The notes under the pieces: generated by a model | What the model saw: only the letters and a program-made list of their open reading frames with translations | What the model was told of the DNA's origin: nothing | Databases searched by the model: none | Program-made: the position numbers and the translations under genes | From: Chlamydiia bacterium | GTDB lineage: Bacteria > Chlamydiota > Chlamydiia > Chlamydiales > RGXB01 | NCBI GenBank assembly: GCA_040382515.1 | Contig: JBEIFH010000002.1 | Coordinates: forward strand, 29,806 to 93,805 | Reading direction: 5' to 3' | Length of the DNA stretch: 64,000 nt | Shown: piece by piece, positions 2-28,166 of the stretch | Numbering within the stretch: position 1 is the first letter of the stretch | Layout: each line of letters begins with the position of its first letter

Positions 2-784
2 TATCGCCTCTATGATTTTCCTTCCAAAAACGGTCTTGTTTGGGATGATCAAATCCGCGATACCATCAGGAGATTTGCCCGTATGGATCAGGGGCAGGTA
101 CCAGCGCTTTATTCCCAGATTCATAGTCCAGACATTGTAAAAATGGTCACCTGCCACGATGGTTTCACCCTTTACGATCTTGTAAGCTATGAACACAAAC
201 ACAACCTGATCAACGGAAACAAAAATCGGGATGGACACTCCTGGAACTATAGCTCGAATTGTGGATTCGAGGGGGAAACAAAAGACATGAGAATCATGAC
301 CAAAAGAATCCGTCGAGCCGAAACAATCTTTGCTCTACTTTTTTGCTTCAACGGGCCTATCCTAATCAACGCAGGGGATGAATTCTTAAGTACACATTAT
401 GGCAACAACAATCCCTACAATCAAGATAACCGGATTAGCTACTTGGAATGGAATCGACAAATTTACCCAAATTTCAAAGATTTTACCCAAAAACTGATCC
501 ATATTTTTAAAAATAGCTCTCTTTCAAATCCTCTTGCGATGGTGCAATTTTACGGCAGCTCACCCCACGAGCTTGGTCTTCTCCACTCAGACCATTTTTT
601 TTCATTCTCCAAAACAGATCGAACAAGCTCTGTTTTTATCGCAATCAATAGTTGGAAAGATCCGATCGAAGTCACGTTGCCGGTTTTGAGCAAGGGACAA
701 TGGGAAATCGTTTTATCCACCTCGGTTAATCCGCTAGTTTTAGAGGAAAACACCATTCTGATAGCGCTTTGCGATCTTACGTAA
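2..784 (+). CDS. glgX: Glycogen debranching enzyme GlgX (GH13 isoamylase-type), C-terminal part; 5' end lies outside the window
   Basis: The frame is open from nt 2 with no stop before the listed Met at 83. Translation carries VTCHDGFTLYDLVSYEHKHN..NG..NRDG...N.S.NCG.EGET.D and GDEF...H.GNNNPYNQDN, typical of GlgX/isoamylase C-terminal halves. Confidence 0.8.
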   Translation, partial: YRLYDFPSKNGLVWDDQIRDTIRRFARMDQGQVPALYSQIHSPDIVKMVTCHDGFTLYDLVSYEHKHNLINGNKNRDGHSWNYSSNCGFEGETKDMRIMTKRIRRAETIFALLFCFNGPILINAGDEFLSTHYGNNNPYNQDNRISYLEWNRQIYPNFKDFTQKLIHIFKNSSLSNPLAMVQFYGSSPHELGLLHSDHFFSFSKTDRTSSVFIAINSWKDPIEVTLPVLSKGQWEIVLSTSVNPLVLEENTILIALCDLT

Positions 785-822
785 TCCCATTCTGATAGCT
801 TTTTTACCGATCTCACGTAATC
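753..822. repeat. Imperfect tandem duplication (34 + 36 bp) straddling the glgX stop codon
   Basis: ccattctgatagcgctttgcgatcttacgtaatc (753-786) is followed directly by ccattctgatagcttttttaccgatctcacgtaatc (787-822). The glgX TAA lies inside copy 1. Confidence 0.75.
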
Positions 823-1033
823 CCTTAAGATGAAAAAGCGGGCAAACAGACCTGCTTTTTCTAGAAATTTGGCGGTGTCCATTTTTTGGGATCTAAACGG
901 GTGTCGGGCTCTAAAGCCAAAAGAAATCTTTCTTAATGCCGTCAAGGCCCTTTTTCAAAAGAAATCTTGAAATATTTTTTTTTCATAGAGGAAATTGTTG
1001 GCAACATTTCTTACAAGAAGTTATTGTAAAAAT

Positions 1034-1696
1034 ATGCTTCTTAGACACGCTATTCAAAATTTTTTCAAATCCTCCATCGTCTGTTTTCTTTTTTTTGGAT
1101 GCTCGCAAATGCATTTTCAGGATCAAACAGCCTACCATGACGATGGGAGAAAAAAACCGATGGTTTGCTTGCTTGGGGTATTCGATTCCTCCATGTCCGA
1201 CCTACCCTGGAGCCTTTCTGAGGAGTTCACCCTATCAATCCAACAGACAATCATGCAGTCGAAGCAACTCTATCTTCTGCAAGATTATCCCTTGGTCAAT
1301 TACCTCCTTTCTCAAGAAAGGAGCTACAAACCCTTTCTTCAAGATCTCAATGTGCTCCATAACCTCCCCCTACAATCGGAATATGTGGTTTTTCTGGAAT
1401 TGATTCGACACAATCTGGACAAATCGTCGGACGGGATTAGGCTTACCGAGCATCTGGATATGGCGGTCAGAGTCCGAATCATCGACTTAAGAGGAAAGGC
1501 GCCCCGTATTGTCCTGCAGGAGGTTTTTGAGAAAAAAACAGACATCTTAAGCTCCTTATCTCTTGTGGATTATAGAAGCACAACATGGGGCTCCGCCTCT
1601 TTTTCGGTACTCCCCCTAGGTGTTGCCCACAATGACTTCTGCCGCGCTTTGGCAGAAAGAATTGAGGAGTACATTCTGGTAGCTAAATATAAGTAG
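1034..1696 (+). CDS. Putative lipoprotein, function unknown
   Basis: ATG at 1034 gives MLLRHAIQNFFKSSIVCFLFFGC-SQ, a hydrophobic leader ending in a lipobox-like FFGC. The ORF track start at 995 is a TTG. No recognisable catalytic motif. Confidence 0.5.
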   Translation: MLLRHAIQNFFKSSIVCFLFFGCSQMHFQDQTAYHDDGRKKPMVCLLGVFDSSMSDLPWSLSEEFTLSIQQTIMQSKQLYLLQDYPLVNYLLSQERSYKPFLQDLNVLHNLPLQSEYVVFLELIRHNLDKSSDGIRLTEHLDMAVRVRIIDLRGKAPRIVLQEVFEKKTDILSSLSLVDYRSTTWGSASFSVLPLGVAHNDFCRALAERIEEYILVAKYK

Positions 1697-1704
1697 AGAG
1701 TCTT

Positions 1705-2487
1705 ATGGACGTGAAAAATTTCTTGGTTTCATCCCTAGTTTTGCTTGGCATCTCCTTTTTTACACACTGGTTAGGATACAAAAAAAATCTCTTCAGCTTG
1801 TTCAAAACCTCGTTCCAATCAAAATTATACCCTGTAACCGCGGGTCTCTTGACGCTCCTTTCTATTTTTTGCTACCTTTTTCCCATCCCTTTTATCCCTT
1901 GGTACATACCTCTTATTCTTTTGTTGTTTTATTTTGGCCTAAAAGGAAAAGAGCAGTTCGCTTCCTTGATAAAAGATCCTATGACGCTGCCAAAAACGGG
2001 GCTTCTTTGGGATCTCGCCATTGGGGTCATTCTTTTTATCGTCTCTCTCCCCTTCCTCTCTTTTATACAAAACGGGTTGGAATGGGTCCTCACCTATTTT
2101 TTCAAGATGGAAATTCCGAAGCAATACTTCATCGATTTTATTCAACAAATCAAAGGAAATAAACCCCTTCTTGCTTTCTTTTTCTCCCTTGTCTGTGTCC
2201 TCGTACCCGCCTATGAGGAGTTTCTATACAGGGCCAATATCCAAACTTGGCTTAAAAACTACCTCTCCCCTTTCTGGGCGATTTTCTTTACCTCCCTATT
2301 TTTTTCTATCTCCCACTTCTTTACGATCGAAACTATCCCCGGAAAAGTCATCGTAATAGCTACAACATTCACCGCATCTATGTATTTGGGCTTTGCCTAT
2401 GAACGGCAACGTTCTTTGATCGCCTCGATCGCATACCATTCGATGATCAACACAACAACTTTTTTGCAAGTGCTCATGACCGCTTAA
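1705..2487 (+). CDS. CPBP-family intramembrane metalloprotease (CAAX protease / Abi-like)
   Basis: Polytopic membrane protein with the three family motifs: EEFLYR (EExxxR), FFSISHFF (FxxxH) and YHSMIN (HxxxN). Confidence 0.75.
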   Translation: MDVKNFLVSSLVLLGISFFTHWLGYKKNLFSLFKTSFQSKLYPVTAGLLTLLSIFCYLFPIPFIPWYIPLILLLFYFGLKGKEQFASLIKDPMTLPKTGLLWDLAIGVILFIVSLPFLSFIQNGLEWVLTYFFKMEIPKQYFIDFIQQIKGNKPLLAFFFSLVCVLVPAYEEFLYRANIQTWLKNYLSPFWAIFFTSLFFSISHFFTIETIPGKVIVIATTFTASMYLGFAYERQRSLIASIAYHSMINTTTFLQVLMTA

Positions 2488-2569
2488 AAAAACACAGACC
2501 CACTCTTAACAAAAAATATTTAAAAATAAATCTTTACAAAATAAAAACGGTCGCTCTAAGCTGGGTTTT

Positions 2570-3325
2570 ATGATGGATCCAACCTATGGCCTCAGCGCTT
2601 TTGGCCACTCTGACAAAGGACTTTTTAGACAAAACAACGAAGACTATTTTGCTGTTTACGATGATTTATTTATTGTTGCAGACGGTCTTGGAGGTCACAA
2701 TGCCGGGGAAATCGCCTCTAAGATGGCTGTAGAAACGATCGCTGATAAAATCGAAACCCTAAGACCCATGCTTATAGAGGGTCAAGACTCTTTGAAAAAT
2801 CATATCCGCTATCTTGTAAAAGAGACCTCTAGGCATATTTACGAGACCGCCCTCAAAAGCCCCGAGCAAAAAGGGATGGGGACTACTATTGCATCCCTTT
2901 GGATACAAAAAGACCGATGCACCGCTTTTCATGTTGGCGATAGCAGGATCTACCGCTACAGGGATGGAAAATTGTCCCTTATAACAAGCGACCATGCGAA
3001 TGAGGTGAGCGTCGATGAAGACCAATTGGGAGAAATCAGACGCCGTTATCTAACACAGGCTATTGGGACAACTCTAGACTGCGAGGCAAAAGTGATTTTT
3101 GAGGACTTATGTCCGCAGGATCGTTTTATCGTTTGCTCCGACGGACTTACCGACTACGTAACCACCAAAGAAATGGAGCTCCTTCTTTTAAAAAACAGCG
3201 ATGCCAAACAGGCAACCCATGCTCTGATAGAAGCCGCTTTAAGTCGCGGCGGCCGAGACAATATCACCACGATTGTCCTAAATGTCTCTAAACAGAAAGA
3301 ACAGTCAATTGATCTAGAAAATTGA
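2570..3325 (+). CDS. PP2C-family Ser/Thr protein phosphatase
   Basis: Motifs NEDYF, VADGLGGHNAGEIAS, GMGTT, HVGDSRIY, CSDGL and GGRDNIT. Confidence 0.85.
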   Translation: MMDPTYGLSAFGHSDKGLFRQNNEDYFAVYDDLFIVADGLGGHNAGEIASKMAVETIADKIETLRPMLIEGQDSLKNHIRYLVKETSRHIYETALKSPEQKGMGTTIASLWIQKDRCTAFHVGDSRIYRYRDGKLSLITSDHANEVSVDEDQLGEIRRRYLTQAIGTTLDCEAKVIFEDLCPQDRFIVCSDGLTDYVTTKEMELLLLKNSDAKQATHALIEAALSRGGRDNITTIVLNVSKQKEQSIDLEN

Positions 3326-3737
3326 AAAAATCTATCTTGGATTTTTCCTCGTGAAATAAAGCCATTGCCAAAACTTTTTTACCCTTGGATTCCATTGCTC
3401 TAGCTACAAAAATCCAAGAAAATAAAAAAGGGTCTTGATATGTTCCCACCTCCAAAATTTTTCCCGTATGCATACGCACTTTTGTAAATCTCAAGGGGGA
3501 TAAAATCCTTTCAAGCTTTTGTAAAACCTGTTTTCCCTCCTCAAAATCCTGGAGCTTTCTCAACACTAAAAGAGATGTTTTTTCCTCAAAAACATAGGCG
3601 GATCCCCTCACGTTTTTTTTCAATAATGAAGGTTGCAGAATGCTTTCCAGAGCCACCCCTCCCACCTCCATTTTTGAAAAAAGAAGTAGCGGATAAAAAA
3701 GAGTAAGGACCAATTTCATAGAAAATAATTTAAACAT
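3288..3737 (-). CDS. Hypothetical protein with N-terminal hydrophobic leader
   Basis: 149-aa ORF. N-terminus MKLVLTLFYPLLLF looks like a signal or anchor. No motif recognised. Its 3' end overlaps the PP2C gene by 38 nt. Confidence 0.4.
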   Translation of the reverse strand: MFKLFSMKLVLTLFYPLLLFSKMEVGGVALESILQPSLLKKNVRGSAYVFEEKTSLLVLRKLQDFEEGKQVLQKLERILSPLRFTKVRMHTGKILEVGTYQDPFLFSWIFVARAMESKGKKVLAMALFHEEKSKIDFFNFLDQLTVLSV

Positions 3738-3905
3738 CCGTTGCTTTTACTTAAAGATATTTTTGATTTTTGGGCTAAAATTAGAGAATCATTTTTTGAT
3801 CCTCTTGTTGAGGCGGTAGGAATAACGGATTAAGTAAAGATCCCCTTCACAAAGCGATCGTTATTGTTGGTTTTTAACTCCCCTAAATATTAAAATAAGT
3901 AGGCT

Positions 3906-5009
3906 ATGATTTACTTGGACAACAACGCGACCACACCTCTCGATCCCCTTGTATTTGAGGAGATGCGGCGGATTTATATGATGGGGCCTTTAAACCCCTC
4001 TTCTATCCACCACCTCGGCAAAAAAGCTAAAGAAATTATTTTAATTTCTAGAGACCAAATAGCCGGGTTTTTTGACGTTTTTCCAAACGAACTCTATTTC
4101 ACCTCCTCAAGCACCGAGTCTCTCTCTACAGTGATACTGGGCCACATACGCGCTAAAAACGTCCGAAAAATTCTTTCCACAAAAATTGAACATAACGCAG
4201 TCGATGCCCTGCTGAAGAAACTCTCCCATGAGGGGATCCAAATCAGCTACCTTCCAGTAGGTATTGAGGGAAGTCCGTCGTTAGAGTCGATAGAAAAAGC
4301 CCTTACCCCCGATCTTGAACTTGTAGTCCTCTCCAGCGTCTACTCGGAAACGGGGGCGATGATCGATCTAGAGGGGATCAGCGAGCTTCTTTATAAAAGA
4401 AATATTCCGTTGATTATCGATGCCACAGCACATATCGGCAAAGCCCCCTTTATTGTACATAGGGGTATTTCGGCCTTCACTCTATCGGCACATAAATTTC
4501 ATGGCCCTCAAGGGGTCGGGCTATTTTTTGCCCGAAAGAATTTCCCCTTTCACCCTCTCCTTATAGGGGGGCACCAGGAGATGCAGCGCCGTGCAGGGAC
4601 AGAGAATGTCGCAGGGATCGTCGGATTAGCAAAAGCTTTAGATTTGATTGAACCTTCCCATTTTTCCTACATGAAAGGGCTCAAAACCGTTCTCTTGGAT
4701 TCAGTCTCTTCTTTAGGTTCTTTGAATGGGCGTGGGGAAATTGTTTCGAATACCTTCAATATGGCATTTGATACATGCGATGCAGAAACCTTGATGATCC
4801 GTCTGGATCAAAAAGGGGTTTTTGTGTCGATGGGGTCAGCCTGTTCCAGCGGCTCAATCGAACCCTCCCGTGTCTTGCTTGAAATGGGGTTAAAAAGAGA
4901 TGAGGCGAGATCCAGCTTACGTTTTTCCGTTTCGCGTAAAAATAACCTTGTGGAGATGCAAGCTGCGGCCCGATTGATTAGGGAAGAATTGTGCGGATGT
5001 GCACTCTAG
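3906..5009 (+). CDS. Cysteine desulfurase (NifS/IscS-type class V aminotransferase)
   Basis: IYLDNNATTP start, PLP-lysine context SAHKFHGPQGVG, and active-site cysteine loop SMGSACSSGSIEPS. Confidence 0.85.
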   Translation: MIYLDNNATTPLDPLVFEEMRRIYMMGPLNPSSIHHLGKKAKEIILISRDQIAGFFDVFPNELYFTSSSTESLSTVILGHIRAKNVRKILSTKIEHNAVDALLKKLSHEGIQISYLPVGIEGSPSLESIEKALTPDLELVVLSSVYSETGAMIDLEGISELLYKRNIPLIIDATAHIGKAPFIVHRGISAFTLSAHKFHGPQGVGLFFARKNFPFHPLLIGGHQEMQRRAGTENVAGIVGLAKALDLIEPSHFSYMKGLKTVLLDSVSSLGSLNGRGEIVSNTFNMAFDTCDAETLMIRLDQKGVFVSMGSACSSGSIEPSRVLLEMGLKRDEARSSLRFSVSRKNNLVEMQAAARLIREELCGCAL

Positions 5010-7439: not shown

Positions 7440-7442
7440 ACT

Positions 7443-7730: not shown

Positions 7731-7742
7731 ATTCAGATAAAA

Positions 7743-10636: not shown

Positions 10637-11027
10637 AATTGCAACTGTTCACTATACAGGTAAAAAAAAGGACGGCAAAACGTTTGATTCCTCCGTTGAC
10701 AGAGAGCCATTCAGCTTCCAAATCGGACAAAAGCAGGTGATCGAAGGTTTTGAGAAAGCTGTTTTGAGCCTTTTGGTAGGGCAAAAAAAAGAGTTTGAAA
10801 TTCCATTTTCAGAGGGGTATGGGCCTAAAAATCCTGATCTAGTAGGACGGGTCAAAAGAGATCTGTTCCCTCAAGATCTTGAACTTGAGGTGGGAATTGT
10901 GCTAGAGATCCGCGGTCAACCCGTCGTTGTAGTAGCCTTAGATGAAAATAGCGCAACTCTCGATGCAAACCATTTCCTTGCTGGCGAAGATCTCATTTTT
11001 GAAATCGAACTTTTGGATATCAAGTGA
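10629..11027 (+). CDS. FKBP-type peptidyl-prolyl cis-trans isomerase (SlyD-like, short form)
   Basis: VHYTGKKKDGKTFDSS...FSFQIGQKQVIEGFEKAVL..GQKKEF and ANHFLAGEDLIFEIELLDI. Overlaps both neighbours (8 nt upstream; GTGA downstream). Confidence 0.85.
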   Translation: MSKIATVHYTGKKKDGKTFDSSVDREPFSFQIGQKQVIEGFEKAVLSLLVGQKKEFEIPFSEGYGPKNPDLVGRVKRDLFPQDLELEVGIVLEIRGQPVVVVALDENSATLDANHFLAGEDLIFEIELLDIK

Positions 11028-12031
11028 TTTGTCTGGGAATTGAAAGCACATGCGACGAGACCTCAATTGCGGTGATCACAGACCGTTTTGAAATCCTTTC
11101 TAATGTCATCTATTCCCAAGCAGACCTGCACAGCCGGTTCGGCGGCGTTTTCCCCGAGCTGGCTGCACGTGAACACCTGGAAAAAATCACACCCTGTTAT
11201 TTAGAGGCCCTTGAAAAAGCAAACGTCAGACCTGAAGAGATCGATCTCATTGCCGTAGCGCATGGTCCGGGATTGATTGGTTCTATACAGATCGGCCTCA
11301 CATTTGCTAAAACGTTGGCCCTCTCTTTAAATATCCCCTTTGTTGCAGTCAATCACATACACGCCCACCTTGTCGCCCCTCTTTTAGAAAACAAACATGC
11401 TTTTGATCTTTTTGGAGCGCTGGGGATAGTCCTTTCCGGTGGCCATACGCAAATTTTTTGGATGGAAACCCCGCTCGAAATACAGACAATCGGCTCGACC
11501 ATTGATGACGCGATAGGAGAGTGTTTCGATAAATGCGCCAAACTTTGCGATCTTCCCTACCCGGGCGGCCCCCATGTGGAAAGGTTGGCTAAGAGCGGAA
11601 ATCGGTCAAAAATTTTGCTTAAAAGCTGTAAAGTCAAGGAAGCTCCCCTCTCCTTTTCCTTCAGCGGACTCAAGACCCAAGTGCTGTATGCGCTAAAAAA
11701 TCCCGAAATCCTCAAGGAAGATCTTTTAGCCTCTTTTCAACATGTCGCCTTCCAAGATGTTTTGGATAAAGCGCTTCTTGCGGTCCAAATGTTTCAACCA
11801 AAATCCCTGTTTATAGGGGGAGGGGTCGCATCAAGTCAAACACTTAGAACCTATTTTAATGAGTTCCCCTTCCCTGTTTTTTTCCCCTCCAAAGAGCTCG
11901 CTCTAGACAATGGAGCTATGATTGCAGCCCTTGGGATTTTGCAATTTAAAAAGACGGGACCCTCCCCCATCGATGTGGAGCCCAAAACACGGATACCATT
12001 CCCAAAATTTGCACCACTTGTCCTTTCATGA
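11024..12031 (+). CDS. tsaD: tRNA N6-adenosine threonylcarbamoyltransferase TsaD (Kae1/Gcp family)
   Basis: LGIESTCDETS, the metal-binding NHIHAHL, SGGHT and GGGVASS. The GTG start overlaps the FKBP stop. The stop codon is created at the junction of tandem repeat copies 1 and 2. Confidence 0.9.
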   Translation: MICLGIESTCDETSIAVITDRFEILSNVIYSQADLHSRFGGVFPELAAREHLEKITPCYLEALEKANVRPEEIDLIAVAHGPGLIGSIQIGLTFAKTLALSLNIPFVAVNHIHAHLVAPLLENKHAFDLFGALGIVLSGGHTQIFWMETPLEIQTIGSTIDDAIGECFDKCAKLCDLPYPGGPHVERLAKSGNRSKILLKSCKVKEAPLSFSFSGLKTQVLYALKNPEILKEDLLASFQHVAFQDVLDKALLAVQMFQPKSLFIGGGVASSQTLRTYFNEFPFPVFFPSKELALDNGAMIAALGILQFKKTGPSPIDVEPKTRIPFPKFAPLVLS

Positions 12032-12252
12032 TTGCAGCCCTTGGGATTTTGCAATTTAAAAAGACAAGGACCCTCCCCCATCGATGTGGAGTCAAAAACA
12101 AGGGATCCCATTTTCAAAATTTGCACCACTTGTCCTTTCATGATTGGAGCCCTTGGGATTTTGCAATTTAAAAAGACAAGAACCTCCCCCATCGATGTGG
12201 GGCCCAAAACAAGGATACCATTCCCAAAATTTGCGCCGCCTGCCCTTTGTCT
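11918..12252. repeat. Tandem triplication (110, 112 and about 111 bp) of the tsaD 3' end
   Basis: Units start with atgattgcagcccttgggattttgcaatttaaaaagac at 11918 and 12028, and with atgattggagcccttggg... at 12140. The copies are clearly homologous but diverged by substitutions and 1-2 nt indels. Confidence 0.9.
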
Positions 12253-12286
12253 AGAAAACTTGAAATCACATGGGTTTAAGTCCTAA
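12140..12286 (+). pseudogene. Detached duplicate of the TsaD C-terminal coding segment (repeat copy 3 plus native-looking tail)
   Basis: Reads MIGALGILQFKKTRTSPIDVGPKTRIPFPKFAPPALCLENLKSHGFKS. Compare the TsaD C-terminus MIAALGILQFKKTGPSPIDVEPKTRIPFPKFAPLVLS. It is part of track ORF 12032..12286. Confidence 0.55.
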
Positions 12287-12447: not shown

Positions 12448-12612
12448 ATGGCCAAAAAGAAAGCTGCCCGTCATACGATTCAATTGAGAAGTAGCGAATC
12501 TTCCCACATGTACTCTACCCAAAAGAATAAGAACAATACCACCGGTCGTGTAGAGCTCATGAAATTCGATCCTATTGTTAAAAAACATGTAATGTATAAA
12601 GAGAAGAAGTAA
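12448..12612 (+). CDS. rpmG: 50S ribosomal protein L33
   Basis: 54-aa ORF absent from the track: [54 protein letters not shown]. This matches the L33 pattern (L.S.ES.H.Y.T.KNK.N......L.K.DP...KHV..KE.K). Confidence 0.9.
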
Positions 12613-15919: not shown

Positions 15920-16761
15920 CTCTGATCCTCGACGGAAAATACGCAAGCCAGACCCTCTTATCAAGACAAAAAATCCCTACAACAACCTCCCCGCAGATCG
16001 TATTTATTTTAGTAGGGAACCACCCTGCCTCGTTGTCTTACATCTCGATTAAACAAAAAGCCTGCCAACAGCAGGCGATCCGCTCTCATATAGTACGCCT
16101 TGAGGAGCACACCACCCTAAAACACCTGATTGAGGAGATTAAAAAGCTCAACAACGATCCGGATGTGGACGGTATCTTGGTGCAACTTCCGCTCCCGGTT
16201 CACATCCCTATGCAGCCGGTGATCGAAGCGATAGATCCTAAAAAAGATGTCGATTGCCTCCACCCTTTCAACCTAGGGCGGCTGACGATGGGTGACACGA
16301 CAGGCCTACTCCCCTGCACTCCGTGCGGAATTTTAGAGCTTTTAAATTTTTACGAGATCGATGCGTATCAAAAAGAGATTTGCATCCTAGGAAGAAGCTC
16401 GATTGTCGGACGCCCTCTTTCAATCCTGGTCTCTTTGAAGTCTACTCTAGATTCTACAGTTACCCTTTGTCATCAGGGGACAAAAAATCTTTTTGAACAC
16501 ACAAAAAAAGCAGACATCCTGGTGGCTGCGATGGGCAAACCCCATTTTATAAAAAAAGAGCACATTAAAGAGGGTGCCGTGGTGATCGATGTAGGGATCA
16601 ATCGGGAGGGGGATAGACTCGTAGGAGACATCGACTTTTCTAGCGTCAAACAAAAAGCAAAAGCAATAACCCCTGTTCCCGGTGGTGTGGGGCCAATGAC
16701 CGTTTATGCATTGCTACAAAATGCCCTAAAAGCACATAAACAAAGAATAGAGAACACATAG
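15916..16761 (+). CDS. folD: Bifunctional methylenetetrahydrofolate dehydrogenase/cyclohydrolase
   Basis: ILDGK, DGILVQLPLP, GRSSIVGRP and PGGVGPMT motifs. ATGA overlap with the upstream gene. Confidence 0.9.
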   Translation: MTLILDGKYASQTLLSRQKIPTTTSPQIVFILVGNHPASLSYISIKQKACQQQAIRSHIVRLEEHTTLKHLIEEIKKLNNDPDVDGILVQLPLPVHIPMQPVIEAIDPKKDVDCLHPFNLGRLTMGDTTGLLPCTPCGILELLNFYEIDAYQKEICILGRSSIVGRPLSILVSLKSTLDSTVTLCHQGTKNLFEHTKKADILVAAMGKPHFIKKEHIKEGAVVIDVGINREGDRLVGDIDFSSVKQKAKAITPVPGGVGPMTVYALLQNALKAHKQRIENT

Positions 16762-19593: not shown

Positions 19594-20186
19594 GACAATC
19601 GTTTATTACAGGCTTACTACTTTTGATCCCATTGGCAATCACATTTTGGGTTGTTAAGGTGTTTTTTGATCTCCTCTCAAATCCGCTTCTGACTTTGATC
19701 TCTCCGTTTGTCGATGCGATCAACCAATCCTGGGACCACCCCTATATTTTGCATTTTCTTGCCCGGATCTGCTCCATTTTCATCCTTTTTACGGGGGTGC
19801 TTTTGATCGGATTTATTGGGGAGCACCTTTTTGAGGGGTGGCTCCATAGGGCGATCGATGCCGTTGTATCCAGAATGCCTGTTGTAAAAACTGTGCATAA
19901 AGTGATCAAAGAGGTTTTGAAGCAGTTTACTACAAGCTCGCAATCTCCTTTGGAAAAACCCTCACTCATTCCCTACACTCTCGACACAAGCTACATCGTC
20001 ACCTCCCAGCTCCCGAAAGTACCGGTAGAAATCCAATCGCTCATTCCGGGATTTAAAGCCTACTATCTCCCCACCTCCCCGCAACCTCTGCATGGGATCC
20101 TCCTTTTTTCAAAAGAGGGCAAACAACTTGATACGAACTCCGAGGAAATGATAAAGTTTATTATTTCCTGTGGTGTGATTTCATGA
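19590..20186 (+). CDS. DUF502-family membrane protein, tandem paralogue
   Basis: Same architecture: MPVVKTVHKVIKEV, then TSPQPLHGILLFSKEG..LDTNSEEMIKFIISCG. ATGA overlaps on both sides. Confidence 0.65.
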   Translation: MRQSFITGLLLLIPLAITFWVVKVFFDLLSNPLLTLISPFVDAINQSWDHPYILHFLARICSIFILFTGVLLIGFIGEHLFEGWLHRAIDAVVSRMPVVKTVHKVIKEVLKQFTTSSQSPLEKPSLIPYTLDTSYIVTSQLPKVPVEIQSLIPGFKAYYLPTSPQPLHGILLFSKEGKQLDTNSEEMIKFIISCGVIS

Positions 20187-20885: not shown

Positions 20886-20908
20886 CGCTTTATTCATAGG
20901 CTTTTAAG

Positions 20909-21511: not shown

Positions 21512-22833
21512 TAGCTTTATTTATAATTTCCTCCCTTTTTTTGCTAGGTTCCATAGCACTTGCAGCGATCATGACCGCTATAGAGAAAATTGGGTATCTT
21601 GAATTCAAGGAAGCGCTCAAACGCCACCCCTATACCTTTTTCATCCTGGATATTATCCAAAAAACGAATAAAGAGGACCGGATAGACGAGGTCTTAAATT
21701 TCATTTCCCAAACCTACCAGATCGTTCGGCTCTGTTTTGGAATTTGCGGCACACTCCTCATCGTCTCTTTTCCCAACTTCAGACATTTTATATCCGAGGG
21801 GGCCCAAGGGCTTGAATTCACCTCCCTTTTTGTATTGTTCATCGTTTTTTCCCTTCTGTTCCTTACGACAATCTTAGACACCTTGACCCACATACTCACG
21901 TCAATAGTCCCCTACTCGGTCCTAAAAATTTTATCCTGGGTTGCCTATATATTCCTGGTTGTGTTGTATCCTATAGTCTCCCTCACACTGAGGGCTCAAA
22001 GGAGACTATCCAAGGGGGAAGACACCTCAGGATCACAGGGAGCCGAGATCCGCTTCAGGCGTCGCCTCATCGAACTTTTGGATGAGACCGACAGTGAGAA
22101 AAGTCTGGACGACGAGGGGCAACGGATCATGATTGCCATCTCAAAATTGGGATCAAGGCTCTGTAAAGAGGTCATGATTCCCAGAGTGAATATCACCTCG
22201 TTGAATGAAACTACCTCTTTTAAAGTCGCAGCCGAAGTTTTTCTAAAAGAAAACTATAGCCGCATCCCTATTTACCACAATTCTCCGGATGACATTATCG
22301 GCGTTGTCCATTTTAAGGATCTTTTTGGCAAGCTTCACGAAAAACAGGACGGAATTGTCAAAGATCTGGTACGCCCCGTACTTTTTTCTCCTGAGACAAA
22401 AAAGATCTCTCTTTTGCTCAAAGAGTTTCAAAAAAAACAGATGCACATGGCGATCGTCATAGATGAGTACGGCGGTACAGAGGGACTCGTCACCGTAGAG
22501 GACATCCTTGAAGAGATTGTAGGCGATATCTTTGACGAGTACGACCATGATGAGATTGTCCATAAGATCGACCAAGATACCGACGGCTCTTATTTAGTGG
22601 ATGCCAAGATGAATCTGGTAGATATCGAAGCGATTACCGGGATAGTTTTTCCAAAATTACCCGATTACGATACCCTAGGGGGTTTTGTGTACCACAAAGC
22701 TGGTACCATTCCCGAGATAGGATATAAGATATTTTTAGAAAACTTCTCTCTGGAAGTGATCAAGGGAAGCGATCGCCTGATCGACAAAGTACGGTTGACC
22801 CCGGCCCCCTCACCCGAAAGTTTTTTCGAGTAG
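21508..22833 (+). CDS. CNNM/CorC-type protein (DUF21 + CBS pair + CorC_HlyC), third paralogue in the window
   Basis: VMIPRVNITSL, SRIPIYHNSPDDIIGVVHFKDL, MAIVIDEYGGTEGLVTVEDILEEIVGDI, and C-terminal DTLGGFVYHKAGTIPEIG. ATGA overlap with ybeY. Confidence 0.85.
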   Translation: MIALFIISSLFLLGSIALAAIMTAIEKIGYLEFKEALKRHPYTFFILDIIQKTNKEDRIDEVLNFISQTYQIVRLCFGICGTLLIVSFPNFRHFISEGAQGLEFTSLFVLFIVFSLLFLTTILDTLTHILTSIVPYSVLKILSWVAYIFLVVLYPIVSLTLRAQRRLSKGEDTSGSQGAEIRFRRRLIELLDETDSEKSLDDEGQRIMIAISKLGSRLCKEVMIPRVNITSLNETTSFKVAAEVFLKENYSRIPIYHNSPDDIIGVVHFKDLFGKLHEKQDGIVKDLVRPVLFSPETKKISLLLKEFQKKQMHMAIVIDEYGGTEGLVTVEDILEEIVGDIFDEYDHDEIVHKIDQDTDGSYLVDAKMNLVDIEAITGIVFPKLPDYDTLGGFVYHKAGTIPEIGYKIFLENFSLEVIKGSDRLIDKVRLTPAPSPESFFE

Positions 22834-22967
22834 CCTTAGCAAAATCTACATCGGTTGTATTACAAACATTAAAGTAAGCAAACTTCCTTAGGCTGTGAAA
22901 AAAAAGGCTCAAAATAGAGCATAAGCACTCCCATCAACTTCCCTACTGAACTTGGATGTCTAAATTG

Positions 22968-22996
22968 TTGACGCCGACAAAAAATCTTGTTATCCT
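22968..22996 (+). promoter_or_regulatory. Sigma-70-type promoter candidate upstream of the 582-aa gene
   Basis: TTGACG (22968-22973), a 17-nt spacer, then TATCCT (22991-22996), 30 nt before the ATG at 23026. Confidence 0.3.
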
Positions 22997-23025
22997 TAGG
23001 GCTTATTTTTCCCTAGGATATCTTC

Positions 23026-24774
23026 ATGGCCCGTGCCGTAACATTCGTGGAACCTAAACAAATAGCGGCCGGAGCTAAAGCTTCCTTCCGTTTTTTATTT
23101 GTTACCGATATTACCCTGCCCCAAAAATGTCTGCTCCGTTTTGATTTAGGGATTATCGACCCTGAAAAAGATTTTGAGATCCCTTCTACAAACCTTAAGG
23201 ACCAGCAAAATTGTATTTGGCTGACACTAAGCGATGGAAAAGTCGTTGAAGGGAAACAAAAAAAAGATCTTCAGGGGCGCCCCGTGTTCGATTTCGTCCT
23301 CCCCAAATCGGTAGAGGTAGGCGAAAAACTCATGATAGTTCTTGGGTCCCAGATAGCCGAAAAAGCGAAAGAATTTGGTACCAGAGCACCCCTTAAATCT
23401 CAAAGAAAACGTCCCATCCACCTTTTCATCGACCCTAAAGGAAAGGGGGATTTTGCCGATCCGTATGTATTTAATCTTGATATCAAAGGGGCGGAGCTTA
23501 AAAACATCCGTATTTTAGCCCCCTCATTAGTATCGAGAAACCAGCGCTTTGATGTCGTCGTCCGTTTTGAAGATAAATACTCAAATTTGACTTCCAACGC
23601 ACCCGAAAACACCCTGATTGAATTTTCTCATGACAGACTTCGAGACAATCTCAGAATGCGCCTTTTTGTCTCGGAATCGGGAGTTACCTGCCTGCCTAAC
23701 CTCTACTTCAATGAGCCGGGAGTCTACCGCCTAAGCTTTAAAAACACCCTTACCGGAGAAGTGACCCAGTCTCATCCAATTTTTTGCCAGGCGGAGGAAG
23801 GGGATCAAGCGTTTTATGGTGTTTTCCAAGGGATGCGCTCCATCGAGAGCCTTGATCAGGTAGAGTCTCTACTTCGAGAGGCCCGCGACACCGAGCACCT
23901 GCAATTTTTTTCTCTATCTCCTCAGGATGCCGAATCGGAGACTAGCAATGAGTTGTGGAAAGAGATCCAAACGTATACTACCGAATTCAATGAGGAGGAT
24001 CGCTTCGTCGCCTTCTTAGGTTTTACTTACAATACCCAGGATCCAGCCGAAGGGACTAAAATCATCCTTTTTTCAAAAGATCAAAAACCGATCTACAGAA
24101 AGAAAGAGACTAAAACATCCTCTTTATCGAAAATTTTAAAAGCACACGTTCCAAAAGATCTTTTCGTGATTAGCCTTGACCCATCGGCCAAGTTTGCTGA
24201 GGAATTCGAAAAAGGGATCGTCTACCATCCGAATAAGCACAAAGAAATTTTCAAACTCTACGACGAGGGGAAAAAATTCGCCCTTATCGGCGAGGATTTG
24301 ACCTGTATTTTAGCAAATCAGCTGAATCGTGATACCCTTATAACCGCCATCGAAAACCGAAAAACTTTCGCCTCGGCCAAAGGGAGAATGCTGGCCCAGT
24401 TTTCAATTGCAACACAACCGATAGGGTCGGTATTAACAACAAAAACGCGTCCCGGTCTAATGTACGTCCGCCATTTAAAAGGGTTTATAGCAGGCAACCG
24501 CCCCTTTAAAGAGCTGACTATTTACCGCAATGACACCCCGGTCGTAACTCTTAAAAACCTCGATTCTTTTATCGACTTTGAAGAGTATGATGAATCTCCT
24601 TTGAATAAATCTTTGGTCCACGAATCCCATGGTATCAGGTTTTGCTACTATTACCTAAAAGCCGTTCAGGACGATGGGGCGTACCTAATCACCTCCCCTA
24701 TCTTTATTGAGGACAACGAGCACCAAGAAACCGACGAGACGCTTAATAAGAAAAAAGCGACAGTCAAAAAGTAA
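23026..24774 (+). CDS. Hypothetical protein: N-terminal beta-rich region plus PHP/CehA-like domain lacking the metal ligands
   Basis: A long ORF with its own promoter candidate and terminator. Segments FYGVFQGMRS, LQFFSLSPQD, FLGFTYNT, ALIGEDLT....L.RDTLITAIENRKTFAS and the C-terminal YYYLKAVQDDGAYLITSPIFIE follow the order of PHP-family motifs, but the His/Asp ligands are substituted. Confidence 0.6.
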   Translation: MARAVTFVEPKQIAAGAKASFRFLFVTDITLPQKCLLRFDLGIIDPEKDFEIPSTNLKDQQNCIWLTLSDGKVVEGKQKKDLQGRPVFDFVLPKSVEVGEKLMIVLGSQIAEKAKEFGTRAPLKSQRKRPIHLFIDPKGKGDFADPYVFNLDIKGAELKNIRILAPSLVSRNQRFDVVVRFEDKYSNLTSNAPENTLIEFSHDRLRDNLRMRLFVSESGVTCLPNLYFNEPGVYRLSFKNTLTGEVTQSHPIFCQAEEGDQAFYGVFQGMRSIESLDQVESLLREARDTEHLQFFSLSPQDAESETSNELWKEIQTYTTEFNEEDRFVAFLGFTYNTQDPAEGTKIILFSKDQKPIYRKKETKTSSLSKILKAHVPKDLFVISLDPSAKFAEEFEKGIVYHPNKHKEIFKLYDEGKKFALIGEDLTCILANQLNRDTLITAIENRKTFASAKGRMLAQFSIATQPIGSVLTTKTRPGLMYVRHLKGFIAGNRPFKELTIYRNDTPVVTLKNLDSFIDFEEYDESPLNKSLVHESHGIRFCYYYLKAVQDDGAYLITSPIFIEDNEHQETDETLNKKKATVKK

Positions 24775-24781
24775 GGTCTTT

Positions 24782-24818
24782 AAAAAAACATCGCTCTTCT
24801 TAGGGCGATGTTTTATTC
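24782..24818. terminator. Bidirectional rho-independent terminator candidate
   Basis: Stem aaaacatcgc/gcgatgtttt with a 10-nt loop. It is flanked by an A-run upstream and a T-run downstream, and lies between convergent genes. Confidence 0.6.
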
Positions 24819-24917
24819 TAGAACCTCAACTTCTCCTCCCTACCCTTTTGAAAGATTGACCCAAGCACATATATGAGCCGGTCTCAAAACAAGTAAGGGT
24901 ATAACAGCCCTATTTTT

Positions 24918-25316
24918 TTAGATGGTGCTTTTCTTTATGAAACAGCTTAAAAAAAAATCGCAGCAGCAGTTTTTTGAATCCTCTTCTTCTTGCTGAGGCG
25001 TCTCAGGAACTGAAGATTTTTCCACACATTTTGGCTCCGTCAGCATCGTATTCTTTTTTACAGGAAACTCCCTTAATTCAAAGATCGGATCTTTCGACTG
25101 ATCCGGACCAAGGGCCACTTGATCGACAATCTTTTGTATTTTTAAATTAGTTTCCTTGGATGTTTGTTTGAAAGGTCTCTCCTTAGAATCGGTGATTGAG
25201 CCCAAAATGACCGTACCTTCCAACTCTTCATCAGAACTTTCGTGCTTTTCCATATCTATAAAGGTAAACTCCTCCCCACCTGCCCTCAATTTCTGTCCTG
25301 AATTATCCGGAATCAT
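24918..25316 (-). CDS. Hypothetical acidic protein with Cys-rich hydrophobic C-terminus
   Basis: 132 aa, no signal peptide, E/D/S/K-rich, ending in ..EEEDSKNCCCDFFLSCFIKKSTI. Confidence 0.45.
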   Translation of the reverse strand: MIPDNSGQKLRAGGEEFTFIDMEKHESSDEELEGTVILGSITDSKERPFKQTSKETNLKIQKIVDQVALGPDQSKDPIFELREFPVKKNTMLTEPKCVEKSSVPETPQQEEEDSKNCCCDFFLSCFIKKSTI

Positions 25317-25515
25317 ACTCGCCTCTTTTTTGCTGCATCCACTATTTAGGATATTTTCTTATGAAGATTAAAATGCTCTAGGTTTTTTTTAAATTTCTAC
25401 AAGGTACTCCAAGGGATCCCTATCCTAGCTTGAAAATTTATGTCAAAACCAACCTGGAACTTTAAAAGATCTTTAAGGTTGCAAACCATAGCTTAATTAA
25501 ATATTTATTGGTAGA

Positions 25516-26130
25516 ATGAAATCTATGCAAAAATCTATCCTACTCGCGTCTAACTCTAAAAGACGTCACCAGATTTTAAATAAAGTTCACGTAAGACATA
25601 CGATCAAGCCCTCCTATTTTGACGAAGACCAGGTCCCATTAAGCCTGAGCGTAAAAGAGTATTCCCTTGAAGTTGCCCTTAGAAAGGGGGAATCTGTGGC
25701 CAAAACCTTCCCAGATGCCTGGGTTTTATCTGCCGATACGTCAGTCCATTTTGAAAATTGCCACCTCAATAAACCTAAATCGATGGCCGAGGCGCATCAG
25801 ATGCTCTTTAAGCTCCAAGGCAATGAGCATATTGTCTCTTCAGCTATGGCGCTTTATCATAAAAATAGGGTGTTTTCAATTGCACATTTCAACAAAGTTT
25901 TCTTTAAACCTTTAAAATCGGACTGGATTCGATATTACCATAGTACTATAGATGTATTAGATGCGGCTGGAAGCTATATGATTGATGGTTTGAGTTCTTT
26001 ATTTATCGAAAAGATAGAGGGAACTTTAGAATCTGTTATGGGACTTCCTGTACACTTATTAGAAGATCTTATAGAAAAACATGGAGGTAACCTGTGCGAT
26101 TTTACCGAATTTTCCCTCTCATTGCCCTGA
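25516..26130 (+). CDS. maf: Maf-like nucleoside triphosphate pyrophosphatase
   Basis: ILLASNSKRRHQIL, VLSADTSV and GSYMIDG...IEKIEG...VMGLP. Confidence 0.85.
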   Translation: MKSMQKSILLASNSKRRHQILNKVHVRHTIKPSYFDEDQVPLSLSVKEYSLEVALRKGESVAKTFPDAWVLSADTSVHFENCHLNKPKSMAEAHQMLFKLQGNEHIVSSAMALYHKNRVFSIAHFNKVFFKPLKSDWIRYYHSTIDVLDAAGSYMIDGLSSLFIEKIEGTLESVMGLPVHLLEDLIEKHGGNLCDFTEFSLSLP

Positions 26131-27773
26131 TTTTATTTTCCCCCATCCACCCCATATCAGAAGCCGCTCAAAAACAAATCCTCCATCTAGCGGCAATCGG
26201 AGAGGTGGACGAAGCTATAAAAAGTTATCTTTTGCATTCTAAAGCAACGAAAGAACACTCGATCGACATTTTAGAACAAATCGGGACAAGAATCATCCAG
26301 CTTGGATTTAAAACACAAGAACCCGACACCTGCCTTTTATCCCTTTTCGGCGCAAACATAGCCCGACTTCCCGTTGATCGTAAATTTTTGACCCGCGCAT
26401 TTAGAAGCTCCAACCCCCTGCTCCAAAGCGCCGCTTTGCAAACACTTTCCATGGAAGAGATGGACGACACCGAATCGATCCTAAAAGAGGGGGTAAAATC
26501 GGATTATTTAATGATCAGACTAGAAACTCTCTTTCAGTTGGTTCATCGCCACTCAAGACACGCTATGGGTCTTGTCGAGTCATTAAAAAATATCCTACAT
26601 CCTCAATTGCATTTTGTTTTTCCGGAGTTTTATGCTTTGGATGGAACAGACGAATCGATCAATATTTTGAAACAGATGACCCATGACCCCAATATCCACG
26701 TGAGGGTGAGCGCTATTTTATCGGCAGTAAAATACGACCGAGATGCCCTTTTGCCGGTTATAAGAGCTGTTGTTACCCATCCCCACCCCATTGAGCAGGA
26801 GGCCGCAGCTTTGGCTCTTGGATTTTTCAAAGATATTGATGCGAAACCAAAACTGGAAAGACTCTTGAAATCTACTAGTCCCGATGTGAGGCTAGCCGCC
26901 TCCCTTTCTCTCTTGAAGCTCGGTTTTTTCGAACATAAAGACGAAATTGTAAAACTTGCTAAAGGGGGGCACCCTTTTGCAATCTCTACTTTGGGCGAGG
27001 TGGGGGGTGGCACACAGGAATTACTCGAACATTTAAAAAATCCGCATCACATCACTCGCTACAGAGCCGCTTACGCTCTCTTAAAACAAAGGGATCCGCG
27101 ATGCCTCTCGACGATCACAGAAATTCTCATTACCCCGTCGCATGACCTCAACCTAGTCCCTTTTTTCAGTCCTGCAAGAAGCCTCTCTAGCTTTGAATCC
27201 TACTTCGGACCTATCAAAGAGGTGGAGTTAAAAAACTCGATAGCCGCCTATACTAACCACATTAAGCAATCGATGCTTATAGATGCTCTTGATTTGGGAG
27301 AGCCCTATTTCCTCAATATTGCGAACACCCTCATCTCTTTAAAAAAATCGGAAATGATCCCGATTCTTGTCCGCCTGCTCGAAAATTTGCAATCAAAAGA
27401 GGCCGTGGAGCTATTGAAAAAATCAACACAAATGCCCGGAGCCCCCTTTATCCGTTCCTATGCGAACCTGGCTATGTACCGTTTAGGCAACTACAAAGAA
27501 TTCGATAAATCAACGATGGACTTTGTTCGCGACTCTGTATCCAATGAAATGATCTCTTTCCAACCTGTCGACCTCGATCCTAGGAACAGAAACAAGGCCA
27601 ATCCATTTCAACTCACCCCTTCCGAAAGATCGCAGCTTCTTTTGGAGACATTCGAAGCTCTTTTAATCCGGCACGAAACTGACGGAATCGACCTTATCTT
27701 AGAATGTATCTTGAAAGGTCACCCCAATAATCGTTATGCCTTAGCAGGATTGTTACTTAAGATGGTGCAGTGA
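26094..27773 (+). CDS. Secreted/periplasmic HEAT-repeat protein, function unknown
   Basis: GTG start with GGAGG 8 nt upstream. Signal-like N-terminus MRFYRIFPLIALILFSPIHPISEA. Repeated HEAT-like units (DPNIHVRVSAILSAV, SPDVRLAASLSLLKLG, HHITRYRAAYALLK). Confidence 0.7.
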   Translation: MRFYRIFPLIALILFSPIHPISEAAQKQILHLAAIGEVDEAIKSYLLHSKATKEHSIDILEQIGTRIIQLGFKTQEPDTCLLSLFGANIARLPVDRKFLTRAFRSSNPLLQSAALQTLSMEEMDDTESILKEGVKSDYLMIRLETLFQLVHRHSRHAMGLVESLKNILHPQLHFVFPEFYALDGTDESINILKQMTHDPNIHVRVSAILSAVKYDRDALLPVIRAVVTHPHPIEQEAAALALGFFKDIDAKPKLERLLKSTSPDVRLAASLSLLKLGFFEHKDEIVKLAKGGHPFAISTLGEVGGGTQELLEHLKNPHHITRYRAAYALLKQRDPRCLSTITEILITPSHDLNLVPFFSPARSLSSFESYFGPIKEVELKNSIAAYTNHIKQSMLIDALDLGEPYFLNIANTLISLKKSEMIPILVRLLENLQSKEAVELLKKSTQMPGAPFIRSYANLAMYRLGNYKEFDKSTMDFVRDSVSNEMISFQPVDLDPRNRNKANPFQLTPSERSQLLLETFEALLIRHETDGIDLILECILKGHPNNRYALAGLLLKMVQ

Positions 27774-28166
27774 AGTTTCTCTTATGGTTGTTAGCATTCT
27801 TAGCGCTATCAAAGCTGTTACCATAGACATTCGAAGCTCTTTTGATCCGGCACGAAACTGACGGAATTGATCTTATCTTAGAATGTATCTTGAAAGGTCA
27901 CCCCAAAAACCGTTATACTTAAGCTGGATTGTTACTTAAGATGGTGCAGTGAAGTTTCTCTTTTGGTTGTTAGCTTTCTTACCGCTATCAAAGCTGCTGC
28001 CATAGACATTTCAAGCTCTTTTTGATCCGGCACGAAACTGACGGAATAGATCTTATCTTAGAATGTATCTTGAAAGGTCACCCCAATAACCGTTATACTT
28101 AAGCTGGATTGTTAATTAAGATGGTGCAGTGAAGTTTCTCTTTTGGCTGTTAGCTTTCCTACCGCT
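27647..28166. repeat. Tandem triplication (179-bp unit, about 2.9 copies) of the HEAT-repeat gene 3' end / lptD 5' end junction
   Basis: Units start with gacattcgaagctc at 27647 and 27826, and with gacatttcaagctc at 28005. Each unit holds the ...aagatggtgcaGTGAagtttctc junction. Copy 1 supplies the upstream gene's real stop and copy 3 supplies the real lptD start. Confidence 0.9.

Follow-up and report, generated by a model that had tools for sequence, protein, structure and literature searches.

Why three tandem duplications that bear no resemblance to one another should all sit at gene ends is the question raised by the window, a 64,000-nucleotide (64-kb) stretch of DNA from a Chlamydiia bacterium. 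TRF called three unrelated head-to-tail arrays in it: R1 at 753-824 (36 bp x2.1, score 102), R2 at 11918-12248 (112 bp x3.0, score 541) and R3 at 27646-28166 (179 bp x2.9, score 893). These arrays are real and lie far above chance expectation. Cross-comparison of their units in the 64-kb window found neither mutual similarity nor dispersed copies elsewhere, in agreement with the earlier note on this DNA, which had described three tandem duplications without mutual similarity. From 28 to 64 kb, TRF and a direct-repeat search gave no additional array, and a direct-repeat search of the whole window for older, diverged gene-end duplications (seed 10, distance up to 1500) returned only pairs of 20-33 nt at chance level. 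Rfam at gathering thresholds found only SRP RNA (49900-49995) in the window; the arrays match no curated RNA family. Identical arrays, at 99.8-100% identity, are present in independent metagenome assemblies from several samples, and in more remote genomes of the same clade they occur with different copy numbers. Both observations bear out the view that they are not assembly artefacts. Exact-protein look-ups with TsaD (GTG start) and Maf returned no contigs.

R1 lies at the end of a gene for a GlgX-like glycogen debranching enzyme, of which the window contains the 3' part (1..784, + strand, TAA at 782-784; 589 aa at full length in the relative L008). Its match to TIGR02100 has an E-value of 6e-95, under the curated cut-off, and the JGI name is isoamylase. 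Copy 1 (753..786, + strand, 34 nt), the functional one, holds the last 9 codons of the gene with its stop codon and 2 further nt. Copy 2 (787..822, + strand, 36 nt) is a spare, non-coding copy carrying a second TAA; it is missing in the ~93% identity relative L024, where the unit is single, and about 5 copies are found in L052 and L053. R1 lies 9 nt upstream of a terminator-like feature, an 11-bp hairpin followed by a U run (832..861, + strand, −15.1 kcal/mol, z −3.3), which is likely the glgX terminator displaced downstream by R1. A simple terminator scan left this hairpin unflagged.

R2 is an out-of-frame duplication within tsaD that trims TsaD at its tail, to 335 from 346 aa. The truncated present form of the gene spans 11024..12031 (+ strand). 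Copy 1 (11918..12027, + strand, 110 nt) is read in frame, encodes MIAALGILQFKKTGPSPIDVEPKTRIPFPKFAPLVL and is the functional copy. The length of the unit is not a multiple of 3, and a new TGA (12029..12031, + strand) therefore arises at the junction of copies 1 and 2, ..CTT TCA TGA TT... Copy 2 (12028..12139, + strand, 112 nt) is a spare with indels and has no counterpart in L028 and L030, which carry two copies. Copy 3 (12140..12249, + strand, 110 nt), likewise spare, has its ortholog in the last copy of L028 and runs into a remnant of the ancestral tsaD tail with its TAA (12250..12286, + strand), where the copy-3 frame reads ..PKFAPPALCLENLKSHGFKS followed by the stop. This remnant matches how the unduplicated 346-aa allele P0138 ends, ..PKFAPPVLCRENLKSHGFKS; P0138 is the single-copy allele of L047-49, and its tail is precisely what the copy-3 frame of the window predicts. 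Within the clade R2 occurs at 1, 2 or 3 copies with a constant junction, CTTTC/ATGATT, and L028 shares the copy 1/copy 2 junction including the new TGA. The tail itself is dispensable, judging from relatives that stop right after RIPF and from close relatives with frameshifted tails.

R3 connects the gene for a HEAT-repeat protein (26094..27773, + strand, 559 aa), whose length is constant among relatives at 74 to 97% identity, with a gene for a CT351-family outer-membrane beta-barrel-like protein (28129..30156, + strand, 675 aa, GTG start at 28129). The name lptD given previously to the latter gene has to be dropped, as there is no Pfam LptD match; its sole match is to the NCBIfam CT351 outer-membrane beta-barrel family, beneath the curated cut-off. 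In the ancestral state, retained by L019, L038, L020 and L021, the HEAT stop and the downstream start overlap by 4 bp; R3 is located at this stop/start overlap, within an operon. Copy 1 (27646..27824, + strand) contains the functional HEAT 3' end (stop at 27771-27773) and a downstream-gene start that survives as a decaying remnant, and closes with a 17-nt junction filler (27808-27824, + strand). Copy 2 (27825..28003, + strand) is wholly spare, with a HEAT remnant bearing a TAA and two amino-acid changes, and closes with the second junction filler (27987-28003, + strand). Copy 3 (28004..28166, + strand) combines a frameshifted HEAT remnant with the functional GTG start of the downstream gene. 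In the window as in L051, one and the same filler is found at both junctions. When the window was searched for the source of the filler with up to 3 mismatches allowed, the only hits were its two junctions and a single site at 22693 with 3 mismatches. In the ancestral sequence a 7-nt match, ATCAAAG, was noticed by eye ~45 nt downstream; no convincing deletion model for the filler could be built from it.

The claim that all three units include a stop codon holds for R1 and R3 and fails for R2, whose unit (110-112 bp) stops 36 nt short of the ancestral tsaD TAA (12284-12286). Similarly, gene ends had been described as remodelled in all three cases; R2 does truncate TsaD, whereas R1 and R3 leave all three adjoining proteins unchanged; what they lengthened is the spacer and not the protein ends.

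The comparison of orthologous loci in relatives, which the earlier note had proposed, revealed single-copy ancestors and varying copy numbers. R1, R2 and R3 are absent from the ~93% identity relative and from all more distant ones. In the clade at 96% identity or above, R1 has 2 or ~5 copies, R2 has 1, 2 or 3 and R3 has 1 or 3. The arrays therefore arose after the split from the ~93% relative and their copy number is still changing, which qualifies their earlier description as not very recent. The shared junctions indicate that R2 and R3 were each born once. Tandem duplications are the only insertions of at least 6 bp in the window lineage over 38 kb compared with close relatives. In the flanks of R3, L050 and L051 share 100% identity upstream and 99.98% downstream, yet they have 1 and 3 copies of it, respectively; the single-copy states within the clade (R3 in L050, R2 in L047-49) could reflect assembly collapse instead of biological contraction. 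The R3 copies are 98-99% alike in L051, compared with 90-96% in the window, and this higher likeness points to gene conversion.

A fourth locus, R4, which was not on the list of the earlier note, is single-copy in the window, in the interior of xseA (codons 314-359; 32794..32928, + strand). There, 135 bp (45 codons) are duplicated in tandem and in frame in L017 and L050. The duplication of L017 is at a contig end and that of L050 is inside a contig; in L051 the second copy starts at the contig end.

Substitutions in the arrays differ according to whether a copy still completes or starts a gene. Such working copies have synonymous changes only, and spare copies have acquired stops and frameshifts. 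At the HEAT end, copy 1 of R3 differs from L019 in 9 synonymous and 0 non-synonymous codons, the HEAT remnant in copy 2 shows 4 synonymous and 3 non-synonymous changes, a stop among them, and the downstream-gene start in copy 3 codes for the ancestral peptide. The copies that still have a job are under purifying selection.

Positions were evaluated with a placement model based on the gene map of this window. Uniform placement gave probabilities of 0.032 x 0.124 x 0.177, jointly ~7e-4, and is rejected. When placements were dropped in which a gene is frameshifted over more than 15 codons, the probabilities became ~0.16-0.30, 0.61 and 0.67 and the joint value rose to ~0.07-0.12; with this readability filter there is nothing remarkable in the gene-end pattern. 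We ourselves chose the 15-codon tolerance and the share of in-frame insertions taken as harmful, and with n=3 or 4 loci the model has little power. The in-frame position of R4 inside a gene is exactly what the readable-gene filter predicts. No locus is duplicated over a 5' end alone, a class to which the model assigns ~20-25% of cases.

We therefore favor, as the probable explanation, minisatellites that were born locally and owe their gene-end positions to a filter of purifying selection. Each array would begin as a single illegitimate tandem duplication whose breakpoints had at most slight microhomology (0-3 nt), the founding junction of R3 including the 17-nt filler, and all arrays would date from the stem of a single chlamydial clade. 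In a genome that is 89% coding, duplications probably occur anywhere, and those frameshifting or splitting a gene would be purged by purifying selection. The expected survivors would be units over a stop codon, where the first copy still ends the gene (R1 and R3), units over a start codon, where the last copy still begins the gene (R3), and duplications that only truncate a dispensable tail (R2) or stay in frame (R4 in xseA). From two copies on, unequal recombination or slippage would grow or shrink the array, gene conversion could homogenise it, and spare copies would decay. The earlier note had offered a mechanism acting at gene termini or selection as the two options. The placement model, the in-frame R4 and the selection signature favor selection, and a terminus mechanism is not needed; a mutational bias toward gene ends may be additional to it. 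Both the mutational mechanism and the priority of selection over mutational targeting are what we infer from these patterns.

Such targeting would mean that replication forks stall or switch template at transcription units or transcript 3' ends and thereby generate gene-end duplications. The rejection of uniform placement is in its favor, as is the position of R1 just upstream of the terminator-like hairpin. The + strand has a negative GC skew whether measured in + genes, in − genes or in spacers, which by the usual convention makes the + strand the lagging one, so that the four affected + genes would be head-on to the fork and their 3' ends met first. Replication-transcription collisions induce indels according to a review of the work of Sankar et al. 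2016 (PMC7451550), and the orientation suggested by the skew resembles the situation summarised there. Here, however, the placement model explains the array positions without collisions, and the pattern is no longer unusual once selection is modelled. With 72% of the window genes on the + strand, four out of four affected genes on that strand is uninformative. The proposal that duplications arise at termination sites does not fit R2 and R3, since R3 lies in an intra-operon stop/start overlap and no terminator-like site was found on the + strand at R2 or R3. Moreover, the fourth locus is in a gene interior, and arrays are lacking in sister lineages that share this gene order and orientation. 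Altogether, we consider mutational targeting of gene ends distinctly unlikely. A search of the literature on tandem-duplication bias toward gene ends, in bacteria generally and in chlamydiae, returned nothing specific. Two candidates for a motif common to the junctions, a recurring GCTATCA and a 10-nt inverted match (AGCGCTATCA, E about 0.02-0.06) linking the R1 unit to the R3 junction, were judged to be chance, allowing for multiple comparisons. The gene dnaA lies 2.7 kb upstream; proximity to a replication origin was discarded as an account of the arrays, no origin-type GC-skew switch being seen across the window and most of the 10 kb before it.

Less probable again is that the arrays have been kept as useful, with R3 uncoupling two overlapping genes and giving sequence ahead of the outer-membrane gene the freedom to become a promoter, R2 toggling the TsaD tail and R1 shifting a terminator. 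In the spare parts of R3 copies 2 and 3 we noted TTGAAA-18-TATACT, with 10/12 matches, ending 30 nt before the GTG, and the change behind the better −10 hexamer would wreck a HEAT reading frame that was still coding; against this, 2 promoter-like sites were found where 1.8 are expected in shuffled sequence. Growth or shrinkage of R2 toggles TsaD between 335 and 346 aa; the tail concerned is, however, unconserved and frameshifted in close relatives. In M. tuberculosis, the copy number of an intergenic VNTR tracks downstream-gene expression; the rnc-fpg1 VNTR, between two genes, has a length correlated with how the next gene is expressed (PMC2734929; VNTRs also PMC3635867). Evidence against useful arrays in the present clade is that spare copies decay like neutral DNA and that single-copy alleles persist. 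Promoters or terminators as anchors of the arrays were set aside, with promoter-like sites at shuffle level and + strand terminators lacking at R2 and R3.

That short-read assemblers joined strain variants of one segment head to tail is extremely improbable. In its favor, every dataset is a short-read metagenome assembly, there are breaks of Logan contigs within R2, L050 and L051 differ in R3 copy number despite identical flanks, and the xseA duplication of L017 is at a contig end. Against it, the same arrays recur in at least 5 samples and in assemblies from several separate sources, orthologous junctions, including a 17-nt filler found nowhere else, are common to genomes 3.5% apart, stitched alleles would not give rise to the position-specific selection signature, and the xseA duplication is also present in a contig interior in L050.

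Among known systems, selective retention of gene ends recalls the duplication and random-loss model of mitochondrial genomes, in which a tandem duplication is followed by degeneration of redundant copies. Here too, a boundary-spanning duplication keeps one intact copy per gene and the redundant parts decay; unlike in that model, the units are partial gene ends of 36-179 bp and not whole genes, and gene order is unchanged. Phase-variable contingency loci have repeats of 1-7 nt whose length changes switch the reading frame. This class was rejected, with units of 36-179 bp and only R2 altering a protein, and then only in its unconserved last residues. An IS or MITE footprint, in which an inserted element has short direct repeats on either side or inverted repeats at its termini, was rejected as well: the inserted DNA is a copy of adjacent sequence, with no foreign sequence save the 17-nt filler of R3. 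Supply et al. (1997) are said to have placed MIRUs between genes transcribed together, with the stop and start codons taking part. The position of R3 is exactly of this sort. MIRUs are intergenic and hypothesised to be transcribed within polycistronic operons (PMC3635867), and they are a dispersed family, with one consensus common to 41 loci (PMC2734929). Unlike MIRUs, the present arrays are unrelated to each other, and no other copies and no MIRU-like dispersed unit consensus were found in the 64-kb window.

The closest likeness is to minisatellites or VNTRs. R1, R2 and R3 consist of head-to-tail units in the range of ~10-200 bp, as called by TRF, and their copy number varies between close genomes (93-100% identical to the window). 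The ETR/VNTR typing loci of M. tuberculosis similarly have head-to-tail units of tens to ~200 bp that differ between close strains, and bacterial VNTRs, like the present arrays, are mostly intergenic or in frame and change length by recombination or slippage. In contrast to VNTRs, the birth of the arrays is visible here, with single-copy ancestor, first junction and later steps kept in relatives, and the units are flanking gene ends whose spare copies are recognisable as gene-end pseudocopies. This uncultured freshwater chlamydia thereby offers a clean natural example of minisatellite birth in a compact bacterial genome, as its relatives preserve the single-copy ancestor, the founding junction, subsequent expansion, contraction or homogenisation, and the decay of spare copies. 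That a gene-end pattern can stem from purifying selection alone cautions against inferring mutational mechanisms from fixed structural variants.

Four independent loci occur in ~44 kb of the clade and none in the same syntenic region of at least 5 sister lineages, which hints at a raised duplication rate in this clade. A lineage-specific burst of tandem duplication in one freshwater chlamydial clade, through a change in replication or repair or through unusually many head-on genes, nevertheless seems unlikely to us; if there was one, the arrays would be raw material for uncoupling overlapping genes and for new regulation upstream of an outer-membrane gene. Array loci of this kind break or collapse in short-read assemblies and yield spurious small ORFs in annotation, and they could serve as strain markers for the uncultured lineage. 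Finally, the gene that follows tsaD is rpmG (L33; 12448..12612, + strand), and the tsaD-rpmG spacer holds variable cargo in relatives.

Tandem Repeats Finder (TRF) placed three head-to-tail arrays in the window: R1 at 753-824 (36 bp x2.1, 84% match), R2 at 11918-12248 (112 bp x3.0, 89% match) and R3 at 27646-28166 (179 bp x2.9, 93% match). All remaining rows had periods of at most 17 bp and scores of at most 50, and a direct-repeat search found no comparable array in the remaining 36 kb. Comparison of the three units within the window showed them to be mutually dissimilar and without dispersed copies there, and Rfam gave no RNA family at any of the arrays. The observation of three unrelated duplications, made in the earlier note, is thus confirmed, with corrections. 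Its statement that every unit includes a stop codon holds for R1, which repeats the stop of the gene for a GlgX-like debranching enzyme (gene end at 784), but the 110-112-bp R2 unit lies wholly within tsaD (11024-12031). R3 is flanked by a HEAT-repeat protein gene (26094-27773) and a 675-aa gene (28129-30156), whose previous label lptD could not be confirmed because it showed no Pfam LptD match and its sole match, to NCBIfam family CT351 (outer-membrane beta-barrel proteins), lay below the curated cut-off.

Contigs from the same population, found by exact-protein look-up in several samples and assemblies (ENA ERZ17175168/170/176/177/178, GROS21 scaffolds and Logan contigs), carried the arrays at equal length and with 99.8-100% identity to the window. 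The arrays are therefore not artefacts of a single assembly, as had been argued before. Two Logan contigs ended in R2 copy 1, as expected where a repeat breaks short-read assembly. For the history of the arrays, the closest outgroup was a Lake Tanganyika chlamydial MAG (VGMF01000001.1, K_DeepCast_35m_m2_096) with its sister contigs (loci L019, L024 and L038), which diverged from the window by about 7% at all sites and by 0.21-0.22 at four-fold degenerate sites; for closer contigs (L028/L030 and L047-L053) the corresponding values were about 3.5% and about 0.09. This comparison of orthologous loci, proposed in the earlier note, yielded single-copy outgroup states and differing copy numbers.

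R1 is present as a single copy in L024, relative to which the window has a 36-nt insertion repeating the final nine codons together with the stop and two more bases, so that the end of the GlgX-like protein (..CDLT, stop) is not altered. In L052/L053 about five copies were found, made by duplication of a two-unit block. An 11-bp hairpin and a U run lie 3' of the array.

Since the R2 unit is not a multiple of three, translation passes from copy 1 to copy 2 in a shifted frame and meets an immediate TGA (..CTT TCA TGA). Copy 3 in its own frame runs on into ..RIPFPKFAPPALCLENLKSHGFKS and a stop, and exactly this tail is present in a 346-aa TsaD allele (P0138, ..PKFAPPVLCRENLKSHGFKS), encoded on three contigs, each with a single R2 unit and, as in the window, a 162-bp spacer to rpmG (12448-12612 in the window). 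Two copies were found in L028/L030 and three in the window, with a CTTTC|ATGATT junction common to both. The single-copy contigs were nearer to L028 (97-98% identity) than to the window (96.6%), so that their state is probably a contraction restoring full-length tsaD. Copy 1 remained near the single-copy allele, and copies 2 and 3 carried indels. The part of TsaD truncated by R2 is dispensable, because conservation among homologues extends only as far as RIPF, more distant homologues stop there, and the tails of close relatives (P0139, P0140) are frameshifted.

An 84-aa ORF starting with TTG (12032-12286) is made up of the redundant R2 copies plus the former end of tsaD, and its 46-aa counterpart in L028 was called as a gene; both are annotation artefacts made by the duplication. 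The tsaD-rpmG spacer is also a hotspot of variable cargo (L024 17490-21101; L036 3813-6001; L027 4959-6001), which in L024, L038 and L036 comprises GNAT acetyltransferase genes and in L027/L034 a methyltransferase-like gene on the minus strand. In mid-tsaD (around 11400-12003) the identity of the window to the Tanganyika MAG fell from about 94% to only about 71%. The Tanganyika TsaD is a mosaic, in which the N-terminal 125 aa share 96% identity with the window protein and the remainder shares 94% with that of a more distant lineage (P0014).

No R3 array was found in L019, L038, L020 (84% amino-acid identity) or L021 (74%), where the stop of the HEAT gene and the start of the next gene share 4 bp (GTGA). 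Relative to this ancestral state the window has two additional units, and each junction holds a 17-nt filler (ATCAAAGCTGTTACCAT at 27808-27824 and ATCAAAGCTGCTGCCAT at 27987-28003) without counterpart in the ancestor or elsewhere in the window. L051 has three copies and the same two fillers, from which it follows that R3 arose once, before these two lineages split. The few inter-copy differences in L051 (1-3 of 162 positions, versus 7-16 in the window) indicate that its copies were homogenised. L050, 100% identical to L051 over 11.7 kb upstream of R3 and 99.98% downstream, has a single copy, so that either the array itself collapsed very recently or it was collapsed in assembly. Differences between the window copies read as a signature of selection: compared with L019, the functional HEAT end in copy 1 showed nine changed codons, all synonymous, whereas the HEAT remnant in copy 2 had four synonymous and three non-synonymous changes, one of them a stop, and that in copy 3 was frameshifted. 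Conversely, the downstream-gene start in copy 3 kept the ancestral peptide with two synonymous changes, and its remnant in copy 1 had two amino-acid changes.

A TTGAAA-18-TATACT motif (10/12 matches) occurs in copies 2 and 3 (27890-27919 and 28070-28099), in copy 3 about 30 nt before the GTG at which the downstream gene starts; the G-to-A change improving the -10 hexamer could arise only where the sequence is freed from encoding the HEAT protein, as in these copies. The number of promoter-like sites did not exceed shuffle expectation. The first 7 nt of the filler, ATCAAAG, recur about 45 nt past the end of the array, and a 10-nt inverted match (AGCGCTATCA) between an R3 junction and the R1 unit is probably due to chance.

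A fourth locus, single-copy in the window, is a 135-bp (45-codon) in-frame tandem duplication within xseA (codons 314-359, window-equivalent 32794-32928). It was present in L017 from the same population (19769-20090) and in L050, an approximately 96% relative (16345-16606), where XseA has 512 instead of 467 aa; the L051 contig ends where a second copy of the unit begins. All four loci fall in one clade. A TRF scan of the orthologous region (period at least 15, score at least 60) returned no arrays in the Tanganyika lineage and at least four other lineages of the group, bar one 21-bp x1.9 match. Among indels of at least 4 bp over 38 kb compared with close relatives, the window lineage gained only R1, R3, the additional R2 copy and a single 5-bp insertion. 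This suggests a raised tandem-duplication rate in this lineage, which with four events is only a suggestion. The sole large indel between L019 and the window other than tandem duplications lies in the dxs-nadK spacer, where L019 (18813-18992) has 159 + 14 bp extra relative to window 35261-35268.

To evaluate the gene-end position, every possible placement on the window's gene map (89% coding, arrays collapsed) was classified per unit length, counting units that include a stop or lie at most 45 nt upstream of one. Uniform placement gave probabilities of 0.032 (36 bp), 0.124 (112 bp) and 0.177 (179 bp), jointly about 7e-4. After removal of placements frameshifting a gene by more than 15 codons, the conditional values rose to about 0.61 (112 bp), about 0.67 (179 bp) and, depending on the fraction of in-frame insertions assumed tolerable, 0.16-0.30 (36 bp), with a joint probability of about 0.07-0.12 for the three arrays. 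The pattern is therefore real against the naive null and unremarkable once genes must stay readable; such a filter also passes in-frame units, the class to which the xseA duplication belongs. The earlier interpretation is thus partly supported, and of its two explanations selection is favoured over a dedicated mechanism.

The founding duplications may have arisen by illegitimate, RecA-independent template switching or slippage, which fits the breakpoint microhomologies of 0-3 nt (R1 CC; R2 none clear; R3 filler), and later copy-number changes by unequal recombination or slippage with gene conversion. Replication-transcription conflict (PMC7451550) is kept alive as a possible cause: + strand GC skew was negative throughout the window and L052 1-10000, in + genes, - genes and spacers alike, which by the usual convention puts most window genes, including all four affected, head-on to replication on the lagging strand. 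This orientation is, however, not discriminating, because 39 of the 54 genes (72%) are on the + strand and sister lineages with identical gene layout have no arrays. No terminator-like site was found on the + strand at R2 or R3, and no origin-type skew switch near dnaA, 2.7 kb upstream of the window. The arrays are neither mobile-element footprints nor classical phase-variation tracts.

R1-R3 and the xseA duplication behave like bacterial minisatellites (VNTRs), and R3 lies between cistrons, as mycobacterial MIRU and ETR loci are known to do (PMC3635867, PMC2734929), although MIRU are a dispersed family and the arrays, by unit comparison within the window, are not. Their main value is as a well-resolved instance of minisatellite birth and turnover and as a warning not to take a positional bias for a mutational one.

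Elsewhere in the window, a very large ORF (1878 aa) spans 44074-49710 and a bacterial small SRP RNA (Rfam RF00169, 48 bits) lies at 49900-49995; the 64 kb yielded no tRNA gene. Finally, in L017 (18195-18815) the peptide deformylase gene has TGA instead of TGC for the catalytic cysteine of EGCLS (window 31579), among 8 SNPs clustered within 74 bp (window 31533-31606). Either a strain variant or a recombinant patch has made the gene a pseudogene there, or the consensus is in error.
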